Below, one piece after another: positions 311 to 8,567 of a DNA stretch of 64,000 nucleotides. Below the pieces are notes generated by a model, which saw only the letters and a program-made list of their open reading frames with translations, searched no databases and had not been told where the DNA came from. The position numbers were made by a program, and so were the translations under genes. The DNA lies in the NCBI GenBank assembly GCA_963924565.1, contig OZ004607.1:11036001-11100000 (forward strand). The letters run 5' to 3'. How positions within the stretch are numbered: position 1 is the stretch's first letter; every line of letters starts with the position of its first letter. The stretch comes from Ascidiella aspersa (taxonomy: Eukaryota).

Positions 311-3300
311 ATGGGTATGTCGAAAAACACCCGAAAGTTGTACTTGATACTGCTTTTAGCCGTTGCACTTGTCTTTTCCCACACTTTTTACTTAACCACC
401 AAGTATGAACGAGTAGTAAGCAAAGACCCAGTGATACGCCTAATGAAGACGACATCAACTATGAAACCCTTTAACTCGACGTGGACCTTAACAAGCGCAG
501 AAGTTCTATTAAAAAGGTCAAGGAAAGAATCCTGGATCAAATTGGATGACCCGGAAATCAAACTGTTGCGTAAGTGTATACTGAAATTTTAAATCGGGGT
601 GAATTTAAAATGCAGCGTACACATACGATTTTAAGACATAGGTCGCATTGTTATAACTTAACAATGTCACAACGCAGATTTAACATATATATGCAGCCTA
701 CTCTGTTTGAAGCTCTACATTGCGCTATTTTAGGATGTTGTTACAATTGCAAAGATAACAGGTTCTTAGACAGCCTACTTACTTTAATGATACCTATAAT
801 TAAAGTCTTGACTTTGTTTGATTAAATGTGTGGGATTATTTATTAATGCGGGATTCGAGCATATAATATTTTACTGGTTCATCCGTTGATCTAAAGTCGT
901 TTTTTTCTTCATGACGTCACTGGGCTACTTCTTTGACGTATTTTCCTGAAACAGAGACAGGTGCCACAATTTTTTCATACCTTTTGAAGGGTGTCACTAT
1001 ATAAAATCTATTGCCTACAGCCCTACAGGGCCCAAAACCTGACCTGTTATTTTATAAGAAAGCTAAGGTTGTTTTTACATATTTTACAAAATACTTTACA
1101 TTGATGAAATATTAACGTTGGCAAGTATAATTAAGCAGTTTATTCGTTAACCTTTGTTAACCTTTAGACTCAACGTCTCTTCACCCATTGGCACTTGACG
1201 AACCGTACGCCAGCAGAATCAAAGGAATAAGATCACGATGTGAAAAGCAAGGCGCAATTAACCCGCTTGTGGATCTTTCTGGGATGATTTATGACGATAA
1301 TCACAAAGTGGTCATGTGTGAAATACCTAAGGTAGGCTATTCCTTTAAAGTTGGTTGTAAAAACGAGTTAACTAAAAGTAATCTGTTAAAACTTTTCAGC
1401 TAAATCCTTTTCTTTATTTTTTTCGTGTAAGGTAATGTGTGTCTTTTGCTGGCTCTGTATCGAGTGTTGCCTGCAAATCTGCAACCTAGTTAAACAATTT
1501 ATGATGTTATTCAAATAACGTTCACAAATTAAAACAAATATATCAATTTTCAGCAAAAGTAAAACCAAAAACACACACAATTTAAGCAAATTTATTTGGT
1601 AGGGCAGCACAATGGCTATCTATTGGGTGCTCTTTTTAAATTGTTTTCTTCACCAAAAAGAAATTTTCACACTTTTTGAAAGATATATAGGCTCACACAT
1701 GCGTTTAAACTTTAAAACAACTGTGATCAAGCTGAGTAGTATAGTTGGTTGAGCGACAGTCTCGGTATAACGGCCCAGGTATGGAGGTAGTGGATGAGCA
1801 GGTAGCCTCGTTGTCCTGCCGGTCGCCATGGGTTTTCGAGCTCCACGCATTGTGGTGCATAAATTTGATGGCGGCCAGCAGGGCATCGTTGTTAAAGAAG
1901 GAGGCTTCTGCGTCGTCCACCTTCAAGACCTTGTGGCGGAACCTCAACGCCATTTGCCCCACTCCCTGACTATCATTGGTCATGATAGAGGCGTAATCGG
2001 TTGGAAAGAAGAACTTTCCAAGGAGAGTTTTACCTTTTCCCGATTCGCCGTGGAGCATGATATGTGGACTGTATTGGATTCCACCGGTTTCACTCCGCGC
2101 TTCCAGCCCAGCTTGAATGAGAACTAAGAGAAGCTCATCAGTGGTTAAGTTGAGGTCGTCAAATTGCACGTTTTTGGCCTCGTTGATGACATCGTAGACC
2201 GCCTGTTTTGCCTCAGCTACAGTCCATTTGGGAACCTGTTGAGCTGCCATTTTCTTTAGTGCTTTCTTGAGCTTGTTTTGCTTCTTCCCAAATTCCATTT
2301 GGTTGTAAGCTCTTTTTGCCAATTGTTCTGGGAACGAGAAGTTCGCCTGGAACAGCTTTTCCTTGTAAGCGTTCATGGAGGGTTTTGTGTCGAACCCTTT
2401 GGCTACTTCTTCGGCGATCTCTTGCCACTGCCCCCTTTTTGGGTAATCTTCTCTTTGCATCATCGCTTTTGCTTCTGCTGGTACATCTGTTTCTAGTGCA
2501 CCCTTGTACATATAGCTGACCCATGCAGCTTGGTCTTTGATTGCTGCTATGTATGTCAGGGTGATTCCTAGTTTCTTCAGCTCTTCGACCACCGTCTTCT
2601 TGCGCCATGCTGCTGCTTGCCGGCCCTCCACCTGACTCTTGGTGATGAATAGCCCATGTCGGTGGGGGCAATTGCTGTTCCCTTTCTCCAGAGGCCCCTG
2701 ATAGATTGTATAACGTGCCGTCTGTGTAATCCCACTTTTGCCAACGGTCGTGGTATAGGCCCATTTTCTGCCTCTGTACTTGTCGGACATCTCCTCTGCG
2801 CCGGTCGTATTCATTTTGATAGGTTATTAGCAAGTCTTCAACAAGCCTATTTATCCTAATGGTTTTCTGAAATGCAGTATCAAGTGGATTAGGTTTTCTA
2901 CAATTAGCTGCAATATTTCGTATCACTTCAATAGTCGGAAATATTTTATCATAATGAATTTATTTGCAACATTGAACGGTATATATACACATACGATGAC
3001 GTCATTGGTACTAGTACTGGTACTTTCATATTTTTGCTCGGTTGACACTAGTACGGGTCCCCAAAAGTGATGTCCAATTCCATGGTGTAGGGGATACATA
3101 CGAAATTGTCTGTCTTGTCAGCGTATCCTGTTGTAGTAGTTTTGTACTCCGCTGCTCTCAGCTCCTTCTTTATCGACTGATCGTACACATGTATTTGTGT
3201 CATCAGTGTTCTGCATGCTGGTGGCTGCGCCGTGCTGACCTCCCACCACGGTGTTTAGTAGTAGTGCGTGACTGTTGTATTGGTTGAGTGCGTTGCGTCA

Positions 3301-6300
3301 CTACAAATTGTATGCGTATCTGATTGGAGGAATTCCAGTGGTAGAGTTGTCATTGTCTCTTCCAGCTGGTATCTTGTGCAATTGCTGTACTCTTCAAGTA
3401 GAAATTCTGGGAATTGTCCTGAGTTGTCCTGAAATCCGTTGTCGAACTTTTGTTCGTAGTGGAATCCGTGACGTTGTGTAGCCACGTCCATCATAATTAT
3501 TGGCATATTCCTGGCATTATCGTCATGGCGGTTCATGGCTGCTGCTGGCCATAGATGTAGTTTCCAGTTTGAGTATTTCATCATAGTATATTTCGGAGCC
3601 AATGCTTTAACTCCTGCTAAGTTGGTTGCTGTTGTCATTCCGTTGCACGCGTATATCCTCCACCTTCTTCCGATGTTATTTCCCTTGTCTACTAGTGCGT
3701 TCATCTGTCTGCTTATTACGGCAGAGTGGACTATCATTAGTGATCCGGCGCTAGGCAGCAGAAGGCTCTCCGTAGTGTTACCGTCCACCCATGTTCTCCA
3801 CGTCTTGAATGTACCTCTGGGGTCGGTGACTGCCTTCTGGTAAAACCACCACATTTCCTTTGTCTGTGCCTCGACGTGTGTTGTCTGTTTGATTGGATGC
3901 ATCCTTGGTATTGGTAAAGTGGGTCCACCTCTTCCTGCCGCCCCAGATCCTCCTGCAGCAGTCTCCGACAGTCTTGCGCGCTTCGTCGGTGGTTCCCCTT
4001 CGCTGTAGTCTGACTGGGAATTGATGGACAAACCCTTCATCGCCTCATTCATTGGGCTTTCTACAGGGCTGTCTCCTGGTACGTTGGCGGGGGTTGCTGC
4101 GGTTGTTGTTGTGCTTCTTGTACTATTGTACTGTTGAATCTGATGCCAGTTCTTCTTTGCCTTCTTTGCAGGGGGCATATGAGGTAGTATCTTTCTCTTA
4201 GCTTCAAATATCCCACGTACGAGATTCCCGCTAAAGCCACCAATATCAGAGCTAGCTCGCAGTAAATCGCTGTCCGCGTTATTAAATTTGTAGTATGCTT
4301 CTTGACCAAGCTTTTCGTATTCTTGATCGTGTCGTTTACACGCTGCATCCAACGGTCCAGTGGTTTCTTGTCCTATATCGTTGAAAGGTCCACAGTGAGG
4401 ATGGCCTGGTATAGTAATTCCTCCTGTAGCTAACTTCTTACTCGACTTCCAGTTCATAATGAATCAAAACTTACCTTATTTGCATATTATATCCTTTTTC
4501 TACCTGGTACTAGTACTGACACTTTCATATTCTTGCTCAGCTGACACTTCCACCTTCCTCAGTACCAAAAGTAAGAATATGAAAGTACCAGTACTAGTAC
4601 TAACCTCATTTACATACTAGTTAGCAGTTCCTTTTACCCATTTAGCGAACTCGGTTCTGTCATAGTGGAAGCTGTGACGTCACAGTGAGCCTTTAGGTGG
4701 CGCGAAGCGCGCCCGAAGGGCCACGCGAAACTGTGACGTCACAGCGACACTATGACAGAACCGAGTTCGTTAAATGGGTGTCTTTGGAGGAAAATTCATT
4801 TTTATTAAAAAGATGAAATATGGAAAAGAGGACATAGCCATACACTCAAGATTAGAATACTATGCAAAATTGTTGAAGTCCATATTTCACCAAAACTGTA
4901 ATTTTGCCCCTGGGTTCACTAAAGTTGACATATTTGTTACAGGCGGCTTGTACCTCATGGAAAGAGCTGATGTGGAACTTGCTGGGATACAACACATATC
5001 CAGACCAATTCGATAAAGCCAAACTTTTACTTTCGCTCGGCTACCTTCCGACATTAGACAGGTGAAAAGCATTAAACACCTTTTTAACTCTAAGGTATCC
5101 AAAAAAAAATGGTATCCGATTTGTTTATTGCTATTTTATCGATTTAGTTCCATAAAAACATCCTAAATTTAATCATTGTACAATTTTTTTGGTATTACAA
5201 ACAGGGTTGTGTAGTTTAGGCCGGATACAGGATTCGAAACTTGAGTAAGAGTGGTCGAGTCCCGAGTCCGACGTGTTCAGTTCTGAACCGAATAAGGCCC
5301 CAGACGTTCCTCACATTACACCTGACACGCTTAAAAGTCGCTTATAGACAAACGACAACTGCCCTTTACTATCATGAGTGTAGAAGTACCCGAGTGCAGA
5401 AATATTATCCTGCTTAAAACCTTGGTGAATTTGTCACTTAAAATATCGCCGCTGCTGTAACAGTGATCATTACAAACAGTCGCTAATTTAAACGGCCTGT
5501 TAATGCGCCTTTCTTTTGCGACATTAAATTATATTAGTATTTCTTGTAATGTTGTATACTGACTTAGTGCACTATTATCACTGTTTTTAAATGATCGGTT
5601 GACTTTATTTTACGTAGCAAAATGATTTACTAGATTTAGGTTAAATAAAAGAATGACTTGACCATTGTAAAAGCTATAAATTTTTTTTTTAATTTTTAGA
5701 CATGCCCCATTGGTCAGCATTATGTTTAGTGCGTGTATTTTGCTTTAAAAAATCATTCTCGATATTGAAAAAATCAGTGAATCAACAGTTTAAAATTTAT
5801 TTTTTAATGCAAATTCTATAAATTGGAGATGACTTGCAATCACTAGGCTACTTGGACAGTGACTTTACTTGGCTTGTCAGCAGATAACTTGACAGGGGAT
5901 TTGATTTTTAAGAACTACTCTTCATGGAAGTTACTTTTGTAAAATACTTGACTTGGCCTTTACTCCTTTAGCAACACCCCTGCCTCTTGTCAGGTTAAAT
6001 CGTGAGGAGGCGATTTGGCGTCTTGCGACTTACACCAAGTTCTTGGTGAAACGACATCCTCTGGAACGACTGGTGTCGGCGCACAGCGACAAGTTTACCA
6101 GCCGGTCGCCTGTGTCCGGTTTTCGGCTGCGAGCCGGGAGGCGGATCGCCGTTGAACAGGCCGACGCCTACATGCACTCGGTCGGCTTCAACAAGACAGG
6201 GTAAATGTCAGTGTTGTTGTAAGCATATATAAACTGTTGCCAGCAGCCATAGTAATACAAATCAAAAAACAGCTCCTCTGGTTTTAATTGTAGACCAACG

Positions 6301-8567
6301 TTTCGGCAACCTATTCAAGCCGCCTTCGCCAGGGTGAATGACACTAAACACTTGTACAATAAACGGAAAACACAAGAAGGATAAAAAGCAGAAAAGAACG
6401 CGAGCAACGAAACGATAAGAAAACAATTAGTGATAACGTTTAGTCCTTCAGCAGGTGCTTATAGCATGCCGAGAACATCACGTCTGGTTTGACGTTCATG
6501 GTGTTACCCTTCTTATGGATGTTCCACGAAGGCGGCTTGAATAGGTTGCCGAAACGGTGGTCAAGAATTAAAATTACCAGAGGAGCTGTTTTTTGATTTG
6601 TTGTAGGCATGTCAAAGTGAAACGGAATTAGTCCAAGCTAAAACGTTTTCCATGTGCCAAGTCGAACCCACAGTAGTCTATGGCCTCTGATATTTATGTG
6701 AAGCAAAGTTATCCGAGTTGTGTGCTATTGTAGTCAAGTTTATTTTCTGTTCGAATCGAATTTAAACCTTAAAGATTCATGGACCACTTATTGTAATTCA
6801 AATTGCGTCGGTACACTGAAGTTGGTTGGTTCAAGGAGACTGTTCTAAAGTTCTAAATAAAATACAAAGTCGTTGTATGGTGGCCAGCGTGACTTCTGGA
6901 GTCAATAGTAATCTTCAGTAAATACACAATCATGAACAAGTGTTTCGCCAAAATACTAGATTCCTACTTTATACGGTGTCGGCAAAATTTGTAGCGCACA
7001 TGCATTTCTATATACAGATAACTCAGGTCTCAGTCAAGGTTTAGGAGTCCACAGTTAAAGAAAAATTGTTGCTCATGTTTAGAACAACCAATATAGCATC
7101 GGTTGAGCAAGACCCGGTTTTTCAGCAATTGTCATCGTCAGAACAGGAAGAGGTCCGTGAGTACGTTTCTAGACTCAACAATGGAGAAATAAGCTTTGTT
7201 CAATTGACAGAGTAAGTTCTACTTTAAAGCGCATGTTCGACCGACCAACTGGGGACTTGTCATTTGTTTTTGCTTTTAATTGCTTTTTTATGCCAAAGGT
7301 TCTTATTCACGGAAGCACTATATATTTATTTCGCGGAACACTATAAAGGAATTTATTTTAAAAGTAGTTTTAATATTCCAGCACACTAAAATAACATTTA
7401 AAAGTTCATATAATTTTTTTTTTATATTACGGAAAACATGACGTTTTAGTGAACGGAATATATAGTTTTTTATTGGGTTAATTTGGAAAAAAAGTTTCAT
7501 TACTTTTTAGTTAAATTTGATATCTGGTAATTAAGTAATATAACTTTCAGTTTAATTTTTATAGCTTTGCATTGCAGTCCGTTTTAATAAACCTTTTCTA
7601 AAAATTTTGCTGTTCATAAATAAATAAAATTTGGGTGTTTAGCCATGTTGTTAAGTCTATAGATTAATTTTATAATTAATGTTTAATAATCCGTTAATAT
7701 AGCTTTCAGTTGAGTGTCTATAGCAGTGCTTCTTAAACATTTTTAGGTCTGTTCACCCCTAGCATCTATCTCCAGATTTCATTCACCCTTGTCTCATGAT
7801 ATGATAAAACTATCTCGTTCTATATAACAGCACAAAATGACTTCTACCCAATCTAAGTTTTATCAACTCAAGCTAAGTTTTACCATTGCAAATCTACAAT
7901 TTCTCGAGTCCAGAAATATAAAGCTACAAAAAAAAGCACAAAACACAGTCACCAAATCTTTGTACTTATACACCCAGTGCAAAACAACTTCACCATTACA
8001 ATAAGCAAAAAAATACCAAAAAACAATAGTTTTGTAGTCGATTTTCTGCAGAGCTATCATCCATTTCTGACGGTTCACCCTTATTCACCCCTTTTGGTTG
8101 GTTCACTCCTGCAAAAATTGTATTCACCCTGGGTTGAACCATTCACCTGTTTAAAAAACGCTGGTCTATAGTATTGCATTGCGGTCCGTTTTAATTAACC
8201 TGTTCTAAAATTCTTCTGTTCATAAATAAATCAAACTCGGGTGTTTAGTCATGTTGTCAAGTCAAGTGAACGGGGTCTGGCAAAGTTGGACATCCACTGG
8301 CGCCCACAAACAACACTCTGCAATCCTTGCGCCATCAACTACGACTACGTTATCGACTTTGATCACCTGACTCGGGATTCGAACCGCCTACTCGACTACT
8401 TGCAGGGCGACAAGCCAAACGAGTGGCGGCTCAGTCTAAAAGAAAAGAACGCAACCATAAAACAAACTGCCGTGGACAGCGCCTTTGCTTCGATCAGCGA
8501 CCAAACTATACGAAAACTAAGGGAAGTTTACCAGAAAGATTTTTGCGTTTTGGGATACGATTGGTAG
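311..8567 (+). CDS. Carbohydrate sulfotransferase (CHST8-14/HNK-1ST-like, Sulfotransfer_2 family), type II Golgi membrane protein, 6 exons
   Basis: Exons 311-569, 1168-1331, 4943-5061, 5994-6200, 7083-7211, 8249-8567 join in frame with GT-AG junctions. N-terminal TM anchor LYLILLLAVALVFSHTFYL; 5'-PSB motif CEIPK|AACTSWK split by intron 2; 3'-PB motif RHPLERLVSAH; family motif DIHWRPQTTLCNPCAINYDY; C-terminal YQKDFCVLGY. Confidence 0.9.
1705..2814 (-). CDS. Rep/NS1-like protein: HUH rolling-circle endonuclease + SF3 helicase, C-terminus probably damaged
   Basis: Motif I-like RKWAYTT (aa 16-22), motif II YQGPLEKGNSNCPHRHG, motif III WVSYMYKG (Y101), Walker A HGESGKGKT (aa 255-263), Walker B KVDDA (aa 298-302). 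No clear motif C. ATG context caaaATGa. Confidence 0.88.
   Translation of the reverse strand: MNTTGAEEMSDKYRGRKWAYTTTVGKSGITQTARYTIYQGPLEKGNSNCPHRHGLFITKSQVEGRQAAAWRKKTVVEELKKLGITLTYIAAIKDQAAWVSYMYKGALETDVPAEAKAMMQREDYPKRGQWQEIAEEVAKGFDTKPSMNAYKEKLFQANFSFPEQLAKRAYNQMEFGKKQNKLKKALKKMAAQQVPKWTVAEAKQAVYDVINEAKNVQFDDLNLTTDELLLVLIQAGLEARSETGGIQYSPHIMLHGESGKGKTLLGKFFFPTDYASIMTNDSQGVGQMALRFRHKVLKVDDAEASFFNNDALLAAIKFMHHNAWSSKTHGDRQDNEATCSSTTSIPGPLYRDCRSTNYTTQLDHSCFKV
2213..2926 (-). CDS. NS2-like accessory protein overlapping the 5' half of Rep in another frame
   Basis: 237-codon open frame overlapping the Rep N-terminal half, the arrangement seen for densovirus NS2. GTG start as annotated; the promoter-proximal ATG at 2952 is one base out of frame. 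No recognisable motif. Confidence 0.55.
   Translation of the reverse strand: MIRNIAANCRKPNPLDTAFQKTIRINRLVEDLLITYQNEYDRRRGDVRQVQRQKMGLYHDRWQKWDYTDGTLYNLSGASGEREQQLPPPTWAIHHQESGGGPASSSMAQEDGGRRAEETRNHPDIHSSNQRPSCMGQLYVQGCTRNRCTSRSKSDDAKRRLPKKGAVARDRRRSSQRVRHKTLHERLQGKAVPGELLVPRTIGKKSLQPNGIWEEAKQAQESTKENGSSTGSQMDCS
2950..3049 (-). promoter_or_regulatory. Putative viral Rep/NS promoter
   Basis: 44-bp block 3006-3049 shared with the VP promoter, CRE TGACGTCA 2997-3004, TATATATA 2980-2987, Inr-like TCATT 2953-2957 directly followed by ATG. AATAAA at 2959-2964 (- strand) could be the VP polyA signal. Confidence 0.65.
3255..4457 (-). CDS. Parvovirus-like VP1 capsid protein with N-terminal phospholipase A2 domain; frame continues past one stop to 3048
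   Basis: vPLA2 Ca-loop TIPGHPHCGPFN, catalytic helix LDAACKRHDQEY and downstream YYKFNNADSDL; basic NLS-like PPAKKAKK and PPTKRAR; Gly-rich AAGGSGAAGRGG before the capsid core. Confidence 0.9.
   Translation of the reverse strand: MNWKSSKKLATGGITIPGHPHCGPFNDIGQETTGPLDAACKRHDQEYEKLGQEAYYKFNNADSDLLRASSDIGGFSGNLVRGIFEAKRKILPHMPPAKKAKKNWHQIQQYNSTRSTTTTAATPANVPGDSPVESPMNEAMKGLSINSQSDYSEGEPPTKRARLSETAAGGSGAAGRGGPTLPIPRMHPIKQTTHVEAQTKEMWWFYQKAVTDPRGTFKTWRTWVDGNTTESLLLPSAGSLMIVHSAVISRQMNALVDKGNNIGRRWRIYACNGMTTATNLAGVKALAPKYTMMKYSNWKLHLWPAAAMNRHDDNARNMPIIMMDVATQRHGFHYEQKFDNGFQDNSGQFPEFLLEEYSNCTRYQLEETMTTLPLEFLQSDTHTICSDATHSTNTTVTHYY
4061..4348 (-). CDS. Putative small membrane protein overprinted (+1 frame) on the VP1-unique PLA2 region
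   Basis: ATG-initiated 95-aa ORF with one hydrophobic helix AIYCELALILVALAGISYVGYL followed by basic KLRER; position matches X/ARF1/MAAP-type overlapping ORFs of parvoviruses. Confidence 0.5.
   Translation of the reverse strand: MQRVNDTIKNTKSLVKKHTTNLITRTAIYCELALILVALAGISYVGYLKLRERYYLICPLQRRQRRTGIRFNSTIVQEAQQQPQQPPPTYQETAL
4455..4548 (-). promoter_or_regulatory. Putative viral VP promoter
   Basis: 44-bp block 4505-4548 (39/44 identical to 3006-3049), ATATAAT about 30 nt upstream of Inr-like TCATT (4458-4462), which abuts the VP ATG. Confidence 0.65.
4636..4779. repeat. Y-shaped terminal hairpin (parvovirus-type telomere/origin)
   Basis: 32-bp stem 4636-4667/4748-4779 (one G-T), GAA/GA bubble, perfect 16-bp stem 4671-4686/4730-4745, internal loop, GTG/CAC neck, two ears GCGC-GAA-GCGC (4700-4710) and GCCC-GAA-GGGC (4711-4721). 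Confidence 0.92.
6257..6601 (-). mobile_element. Penelope-like retroelement remnant with inverted terminal repeats
   Basis: ~72-bp inverted arms 6257-6328/6527-6601. Enclosed - strand ORF tail WNIHKKGNTMNVKPDVMFSACYKHLLKD* (6440-6526) resembles the PLE GIY-YIG C-terminus. Arms contain a hammerhead-like core CTGGCGAAGGC...GCCGAAACGTTGGTC. Confidence 0.7.
7724..8163. mobile_element. hAT-type MITE
   Basis: 8-bp TSD GTCTATAG on both sides; imperfect TIR CAGTGCTTCTTAAAC / GTTTAAAAAACGCTG. Confidence 0.85.

Follow-up and report, generated by a model that had tools for sequence, protein, structure and literature searches.

We analyzed a 64,000 nt window of the Ascidiella aspersa genome (G000:C1:11036001-11100000) in which two stretches, 3006-3049 and 4505-4548, are alike, and searched the 309-Mb genome for related DNA. 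A GH6 match above the cut-off points to a tunicate, GH6 being a tunicate marker within the animals. The repeated block is part of an endogenous, broken, hairpin-ended parvovirus-like element in which the capsid gene precedes the replication gene. The element spans ~1794-4779 on the minus strand and comprises a Y-shaped hairpin, a capsid (VP) gene bearing a phospholipase A2 (PLA2) domain, an overlapping open reading frame (ORF), and a truncated gene for the replication protein Rep. Along the minus strand, the hairpin is followed by an inverted block, a block, a TATA box, VP, another block, a second TATA box, the overlapping ORF, and finally Rep.

The VP gene (3048-4457, minus strand) encodes an N-terminal PLA2 domain (PF08398, E 2.9e-14) and is broken. 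The initial annotation placed the VP stop codon at 3048-3050, overlapping the second copy of the block. A TAG does overlap the block there, at the position homologous to the ends of the VP ORFs in sibling copies of the same genome (478-480 aa from stop to stop), but the frame in the window already stops at 3255-3257. The capsid is ~470 aa long. Its matches in the PDB were parvoviral VP1 N-termini only, and a profile of the VP core had no match among PDB sequences. The Atlas features of the core point to single-stranded DNA (ssDNA) virus capsids of mixed families with no reliable family, and its structure model (pLDDT 32) was unusable. Another frame within the VP N-terminal region (4061-4348, minus strand) holds a 95-aa ORF that includes a hydrophobic stretch and, close to its end, a PPxY-like motif; it had no Pfam match, a tail homologous to it is present in the sibling L014, and we take it to be comparable to SAT-type accessory ORFs.

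In the nonstructural (NS) region, an NS2-like overlapping frame of ~244 codons (2213-2947, minus strand) lacks the start codon of its siblings and had no Pfam match over the 183 aa scanned. Rep (1794-2814, minus strand) combines, by its motifs and structure model, an HUH-type nuclease (WAYT, HRH, YMYK) with a superfamily 3 (SF3)-type helicase (Walker A GESGKGKT). Its ATG at 2814 lies 141 nt past the predicted NS transcription start, and the gene is broken off at ~1794-1798, just before motif C, the right end of the element being missing. The stretch 1700-1790 was considered as the deleted Rep tail and rejected, as it matches neither sibling DNA nor Rep proteins. Run X1, which may derive from the source sample, has one contig that spans 1000-2610 without differences and thereby crosses the Rep-side junction, and contigs of run X2, from another sample of the same organism, are ~98% identical to the window copy (runs X1-X3 were used as contigs). 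The copy is thus chromosomal and common to samples, and an assembly artefact is unlikely. We conclude that the window copy is dead, a chromosomal fragment cut short on the right.

The 39/44 nt identity between 3006-3049 and 4505-4548, first reported in the initial annotation, was reproduced; in dinucleotide shuffles of 1600-4800, the best 44-nt match was 26-29 (20/20 shuffles). The copy before the VP promoter (4505-4548, minus strand) has a core of tandem AGTAC(C/T) hexamers, and the copy before the NS promoter (3006-3049, minus strand), which overlaps the VP stop, is followed by a third TGACGTCA at 3004-2997. A whole-window scan added two features absent from the initial annotation: the hairpin at 4636-4779 and a third, inverted block copy facing it (4570-4603, plus strand; 34 nt, 91% complementary to 3005-3038, 28-29/31). 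All 13 AGTACY hexamers in 1794-4779 fall within 3012-3024 or 4511-4601. Between the hairpin and the block lies an octamer-like ATG(C/T)AAAT motif (4605-4615, minus strand), which is found in 5/6 core copies.

The two blocks stand before two predicted core promoters on the minus strand. That of VP (4455-4491) consists of a TATA box at 4491-4484, an octamer-like motif, a donor-like site, TCATT (A at 4460), and the ATG at 4457; that of NS (2950-2987) consists of a TATA box at 2987-2980, AATAAA, TCATT (A at 2955), and an ATG at 2952-2950. The TATA-like boxes noted for each unit are confirmed. From the TATA box to the A of the initiator (Inr)-like motif, the distance is 31-32 nt in 7/8 VP units (31 nt in the window), the remaining copy, which is degraded, having 26 nt. 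In 10/10 NS units it is 30-33 nt, though the intervening NS sequence differs. The conserved 30-33 nt spacing makes both core promoters look genuine. These spacings lie within or next to the range described for Ciona, where TATA boxes are at -32 to -29 and CA is the favoured start (PMC4691747).

Other parts of the original promoter proposal fared less well. An ATG directly follows TCATT in both units, but the second opens a 9-codon ORF rather than Rep. The sequence TGCAAATAA is not a common promoter motif, because VP units carry ATG(C/T)AAAT (7/8) and NS units AATAAA (9/10), which is probably the VP polyadenylation signal. The proposed short leaders with leaky scanning suit VP, whose 3-nt leader would allow VP1 and shorter VPs to be made by leaky scanning. 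An ATG at +3 occurs in only 5/10 NS units examined. An ATG at +9 to +11 opens the overlapping ORF in 9/10 NS units, all except the window copy. Leaders of 7-13 nt are described for an aphid densovirus (PMC11642819). Two TATA-Inr core promoters are thus supported, whereas a block serving purely as a promoter cassette is not, because it also lies inverted by the left hairpin and adjoins the right-end palindrome, with no gene following.

The left terminal hairpin (4636-4779, 144 nt) is built from inverted repeats into a long stem and two GC-rich ears, giving the Y shape. Both arms contain the palindrome TGACGTCA, of the cyclic AMP response element (CRE) type, beside which lies a 2-versus-3-nt bubble in the window copy. 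The region 4490-4800 folds at -89 kcal/mol (z -15.2). Hairpins homologous to this end were found at L051, L053, and L058, and bubble size differs among siblings. L058 and L059 (G000:C5:7.69 Mb and 7.46 Mb) are two near-identical copies of an extended palindromic left hairpin with the octamer-like motif on both sides; no viral gene was found in L032. The hairpin upstream of VP in L016 was rejected as viral because it belongs to an inverted repeat of the host, present in very high copy number, that breaks into the VP-upstream region (L016 5715-5917); related repeats lie near other copies.

An AGTTC...GAACT stem-loop motif (4626-4651, plus strand) has its inverted counterpart at sibling right ends. 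The motif is present at 10/10 right ends examined and, inverted, in 5/8 VP-upstream regions, the other three being truncated or interrupted. At both ends the stem-loop is downstream of the array, in inverted orientation, and it is a candidate nick site. Beyond Rep, the siblings carry an inverted pair of blocks, the stem-loop motif, an A-rich run, and a palindrome, so that the block also adjoins the right-end palindrome with no gene following. The right palindrome is whole (~180 nt) in L046, and most other copies end at or near its axis. Sharp right ends were therefore rejected as precise transposon ends. The axis occurs in both orientations among host copies (L033 and L035 versus L034). The right palindrome of a distant clade, whose Rep shares 30-39% identity with P0001, is long and of its own kind, the axis being TTT in three loci and AAA in three. 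The two orientations are an indirect sign of the flip/flop that accompanies rolling-hairpin replication. The distance from tip to axis is 3.76 kb when summed from two copies, no single copy having both ends, and the genome size is estimated at ~3.8-4 kb.

The sibling copies have the block before both genes and beside both ends, and its core repeat differs by lineage: AGTAC(C/T) in the window copy and L013, AGTCCG in L014 and L028, and AGTG(C/T)A in L015-L017. Identity between types is 13-16/26. We compared blocks within and between the six copies having both promoters (L025, L018a, and L024 were excluded as degraded or lacking one block). The VP-upstream block matches the NS-upstream block of its own element best in 5/6 copies, and the diagonal sum of 128 for this comparison was reached by 2/720 permutations. 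For the inverted left block, available in five copies, the comparisons with the NS-upstream and the VP-upstream block each gave 1/120 permutations. Right-end blocks resemble NS blocks of the same type (22/26 between the right end of L028 and L014; 26/26 between L029 and L016). Of 25 loci in the distant clade, 5 carry a short block peculiar to that clade, with copies upstream of VP, at the VP stop, and ahead of the right hairpin. A Rep stretch near residues 60-72 varies with block type, clade and type being confounded.

The block is a lineage-specific tandem-repeat array and, as we consider likely from the sequence comparisons, a Rep-binding site common to origins and promoters. A site read by a viral protein would be expected to behave as the block does, varying with viral lineage and recurring at the gene-less end, while host-type motifs are fixed. 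Rep bound to the terminal arrays would cut the DNA at the AGTTC...GAACT stem-loop common to both ends and thereby drive rolling-hairpin replication, and the arrays in front of the two TATA-Inr promoters would place VP and NS transcription under regulation by Rep, as happens with NS1 of minute virus of mice (MVM) at its (ACCA)n sites in origins and at P38. The blocks of an element would change in concert because every copy would be bound to follow the specificity of a single Rep. MVM offers a described parallel: NS1 binds ACCAACCA at 14 places, P38 included (PMC7592911), and the left origin contains an NS1 site, a nick site, and an ATF/CREB site, with a doublet/triplet bubble reported for MVM/LuIII (PMC1185569).

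Several observations weigh against Rep binding as the common denominator. Concerted similarity can come from recent duplication or template switching without Rep binding, and the six copies represent two clades, so that the permutation counts overstate independence. The block pair of L018c matches at 16/26 and is closer to L013, and the right-end block of L046 scores just 14-17 against NS blocks. In the distant clade, the block pattern was derived from the same loci in which it was then counted, and 7/25 loci have no copy. Among these seven are L069, L075, and L076, whose type lacks a shared block (score 13). Several distant-clade loci are without a block where VP meets NS, and the clade showed no recognisable TATA-Inr. 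Finally, the window copy itself has no right end.

The block might instead be a host-factor promoter or enhancer module that spread in the genome by template switching, without Rep binding. The fixed short distance of the block before both TATA boxes would fit such a module, as would the nearby CRE-type and octamer-like motifs and the conserved TATA-Inr spacing. We regard it as unlikely, since the block varies between viral lineages within one host genome, where the TATA, octamer-like, CRE, and donor motifs are fixed while the block changes, and since it is placed at the right end too, where there is no gene to be expressed.

Arrays flanking each gene could also mean that the internal copy acts, or once acted, as a secondary origin and that the VP and NS cassettes replicate separately (facultative segmentation). 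Many host loci do consist of Rep and the right end only, and a marine metagenome run contains a 1710-nt VP contig at depth 12.8, the listed Rep pieces being at ~3. But the stem-loop motif is present at the two ends only and not at the internal copy, the Rep-only loci start at differing points within the gene, as truncations do, and a left hairpin directly followed by NS was not seen. Contig depth is moreover a poor measure, and the run also contains host-like repeats. Such separate replication is, in our judgment, quite improbable. The 1710-nt contig, from run X3, aligns with L016 4176-5593, and P0062, 95% identical to the VP core of L015, is encoded on a contig of the same length; the VP contig is possibly free virus.

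Gene order bears on whether the two cassettes were ever apart. From 20 genome stretches fetched, ten elements including the window copy were informative, in that the VP end and the NS start are both present, and in all ten VP is upstream of NS on the same strand with no hairpin between them. In 19/25 loci from a metagenome scan, the sequence upstream of Rep was homologous to VP and ran on the same strand; two of the remaining loci have a typical VP end upstream and four begin within Rep. Being redundant, the 25 loci stand for about two viral types. The second distant type (L069, L075, and L076) is also VP-first, with a VP ORF without a PLA2 match and a different right palindrome; a 235-aa overlapping ORF begins ~11 nt past its VP stop and is followed by Rep. 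In DNA trees, VP and the 5′ portion of Rep gave the same two host-copy clades (support 100/99 and 86/90, the latter not starred), and the Rep 3′ tree was unresolved.

The initial annotation had raised the alternative that the block is a region common to two genome segments that became joined; the joining would have taken place by the time of integration. Segmented ssDNA viruses do share terminal sequence, as described for the 53 nt of Bombyx mori bidensovirus (BmBDV; PMC6521256), the unusual gene order invites rearrangement, and an ancient fusion in the ancestor of the lineage is conceivable; yet the collinear, hairpin-free passage from VP to NS is general in the lineage, the genes are collinear in all informative loci, VP and Rep trees split alike, and the VP-NS pair is bracketed by two different termini, so that a recent join is unlikely and largely refuted, and this explanation as a whole is about as improbable as separate replication.

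A separate and weaker part of our reading concerns how Rep is expressed from behind the capsid gene. Between the start of the overlapping ORF and the Rep ATG lies an acceptor-like site (2867-2893, minus strand), composed of a branch-point-like CTAAY and a pyrimidine-CAG. This CTAAY...YYYCAG pattern is found in 10/10 copies and is the sole one in the element. In eight collinear copies, 6/11 third codon positions at the site are invariant versus 1/33 elsewhere (Fisher p 4e-4), a difference to be read with reserve because the test window was picked after looking and the stretch also encodes conserved residues. A donor-like AG/GT(A/G)AGT, the sole AGGTRAGT in the element, is found in 7/8 VP units at a distance of 14 nt upstream of the predicted VP start, and an intron in the window would start at 4474. 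No GT(A/G)AG donor exists between the overlapping-ORF start and the acceptor-like site in the eight collinear copies. Of the 25 loci of the distant clade, 15 were examined, and in all 15 a pyrimidine-rich CAG stands immediately ahead of an ATG after the VP stop.

The acceptor-like and donor-like sites suggest that the Rep mRNA is spliced, in cis or in trans, and we lean slightly toward the conserved acceptor being in use. Splicing in cis from the upstream donor would remove VP in a 1608-nt intron and would require an upstream start, which was not located. Alternatively, spliced-leader (SL) trans-splicing would discard an 89-nt outron; the lengths of putative Ciona outrons, as presented in PMC4691747, peak near 100 nt. 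By either route, Rep would be made mostly from mRNA processed at the conserved acceptor, which would thereby lose the two upstream AUGs.

The 48 matches of the genome search are spread over 5 contigs, with an identity of 67-77% for the long ones, and correspond to roughly at least 20 separate, related, and divergent loci (counted by eye). Judged by sequence divergence, repeated integration of related viruses fits better than recent copying. Most related loci are on C3 and C5, and clusters of tandem rearranged copies are located at G000:C5:33066500-33077000 (L018 and L019) and C3:10795500-10808300 (L016 and L017). The Rep breakpoint just before helicase motif C falls at a near-identical codon in the window (1794-1798) and in L018 (~6680 and 5223), and a joint of 3134 to 1794 in X1 lies in the same region. 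This codon is a possible hot spot of breakage or recombination.

The insertion is flanked by a host sulfotransferase exon (5986-6201, plus strand, opposite to the element; PF03567, E 9.5e-8). A possible upstream host exon at ~1290-1335 was seen by eye only, and an intronic position of the insertion was not confirmed. Further along the window, 6257-6601 contains nested inverted repeats (26 nt, 100%; 47 nt, 94%) with inner arms 198 nt apart, resembling a miniature inverted-repeat transposable element, and a hairpin signal of similar size is found at L013 8430-8692. Partial direct repeats with a spacing of 606-607 nt occur at 7511-7729 and 8167-8263 (49 and 57 nt, 86-88%).

As for the relationships of Rep, 57 cluster representatives were Rep-like at E 0.001, and HUH and SF3 motifs are conserved in the Rep alignment A1. 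At E 0.1, the 21 aligned Rep proteins had no match to Parvo_NS1 (PF01057), Viral_Rep, or Gemini_AL1. When the genome was scanned with PF01057, the element loci gave no match, and the one place that matched, weakly, was L093 (G000:C3:16385952-16386035), which is unrelated and lies outside the element family. The structure model of Rep (mean pLDDT 73.9) had its best VIA nuclease matches in nanovirus, RepB, and circovirus domains (Z 7.6, 7.5, and 7.1), and its matches to SF3 helicases scored Z 5.3-6.2, including AAV2 Rep40 at 5.8; with all Z under 8, this ranking is not decisive. By Foldseek, the model matched both the Reps of circular Rep-encoding ssDNA (CRESS) viruses and hamavirus NS1 in BFVD, and nothing in the PDB at E 0.001. 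The Rep profile returned P-loop noise only from PDB sequences, and no relative turned up in IMG/VR when it was scanned with the Rep of the window, with alignments A2 and A3, or with P0012. A Rep outside the Pfam parvovirus and CRESS families, together with the VP-before-NS order, points to a lineage not yet described.

The element would work like a heterotelomeric parvovirus, and we file it as parvovirus-like, outside the described genera. Parvoviridae have a linear genome of 4-6 kb between terminal hairpins of 120-600 nt (PMC6537627). The hairpins here (144 nt left, ~180 nt right) fit, and 3.76 kb is at or just under the lower bound. Flip/flop termini (by their indirect sign), an HUH and SF3 Rep, and PLA2 are all found. 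The family is further characterised by ssDNA packaged in T=1 virions, by an NS1 helicase that serves as its taxonomic marker, and by a VP whose core is a jelly roll, PLA2 being optional; the present lineage is known from integrated or assembled DNA. Parvoviruses are described with the NS cassette left and VP right, upstream and downstream respectively in monosense genomes (PMC11357303; PMC12297876), an order from which the VP-first element departs.

Among the genera, Protoparvovirus (MVM and LuIII) shares the two different termini, the Y-shaped left hairpin with its CRE-type site and doublet/triplet bubble, initiator sites not only at origins but also at an internal promoter, and the PLA2 of VP1. 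It shares the right palindrome in flip/flop as well, which in MVM has a corresponding shape and is likewise AT-rich. Unlike in Protoparvovirus, VP rather than NS adjoins the Y hairpin here, Rep has no PF01057 match, the capsid is short with a core without a PDB match, and the genome is ~3.8-4 kb.

Hamavirinae and Penbrevirinae (ichthamaparvovirus, infectious hypodermal and hematopoietic necrosis virus, and brevidensoviruses) resemble the element in their short monosense genome, short capsid, and overlapping NS ORF, and their NS1 models are among the best-TM Foldseek matches (TMq 0.28-0.31, E 7e-5 to 5e-4). They differ in an NS1 identity of 10-11% and, as they are presented in PMC6631224, in having NS before VP and lacking PLA2. 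Swazi bat-associated megaparvovirus, in the account of PMC13426907, has a PLA2 domain upstream of NS1 and complete endogenous invertebrate copies, but its PLA2 is in a separate 5′ ORF, VP is 3′ of NS1, and the genome is 6.4 kb and likely homotelomeric, whereas here the whole PLA2-capsid ORF is upstream. Bidnaviridae, as described for BmBDV, share the CATT Inr, very short leaders, leaky scanning, and a shared terminal sequence (PMC6521256), but they are segmented and PolB-based, while the element has an HUH Rep and no PolB was seen in it. In this respect they stand with the bipartite densovirus, whose genes, unlike those here, are on separate molecules.

The Rep itself resembles CRESS Reps and pMV158-type RepB, with a compact (~100 aa) HUH domain, a WxY/FT motif I, and Atlas hits of 0.95. 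The block array has a parallel in the iterons of gemini- and nanoviruses. CRESS viruses differ in lacking the hairpin-ended linear layout and PLA2-VP seen here, and Viral_Rep and Gemini_AL1 did not match. Cressdnaviricota have a circular genome with a nonanucleotide stem-loop origin, whereas the two distinct flip/flop palindromes argue for a linear one; the tandem loci L018, L068, and L074 are rearranged and are no proof of circles. The supplement of PMC5013282 lists one tunicate parvovirus-related sequence, a 572-nt Ciona expressed sequence tag resembling MVM VP. Titles and abstract starts in the literature, with thin coverage of subscription papers, showed neither a VP-before-NS parvovirus nor this lineage.

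A mere promoter duplication would have been a minor finding. What we tentatively put forward, as a rather doubtful possibility drawn from genome comparison, is a new lineage, at family level, of ssDNA viruses with linear, hairpin-ended genomes in tunicates and other marine animals, which would combine a CRESS-type Rep with a PLA2 capsid in capsid-first order and free the Rep mRNA of upstream AUGs by host splicing, through either a capsid-removing intron or SL trans-splicing with an 89-nt outron. The lineage keeps terminal hairpins, including an MVM-like left end, yet reverses the gene order and has a Rep outside the Pfam families. The conserved splice-like signals bear on how a capsid-first genome would produce its early protein. 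With at least three block types and their own Reps in one host genome, the copies form a natural series for mapping initiator specificity, and the lineage as a whole bears on the origin of linear rolling-hairpin genomes from circular rolling-circle genomes.

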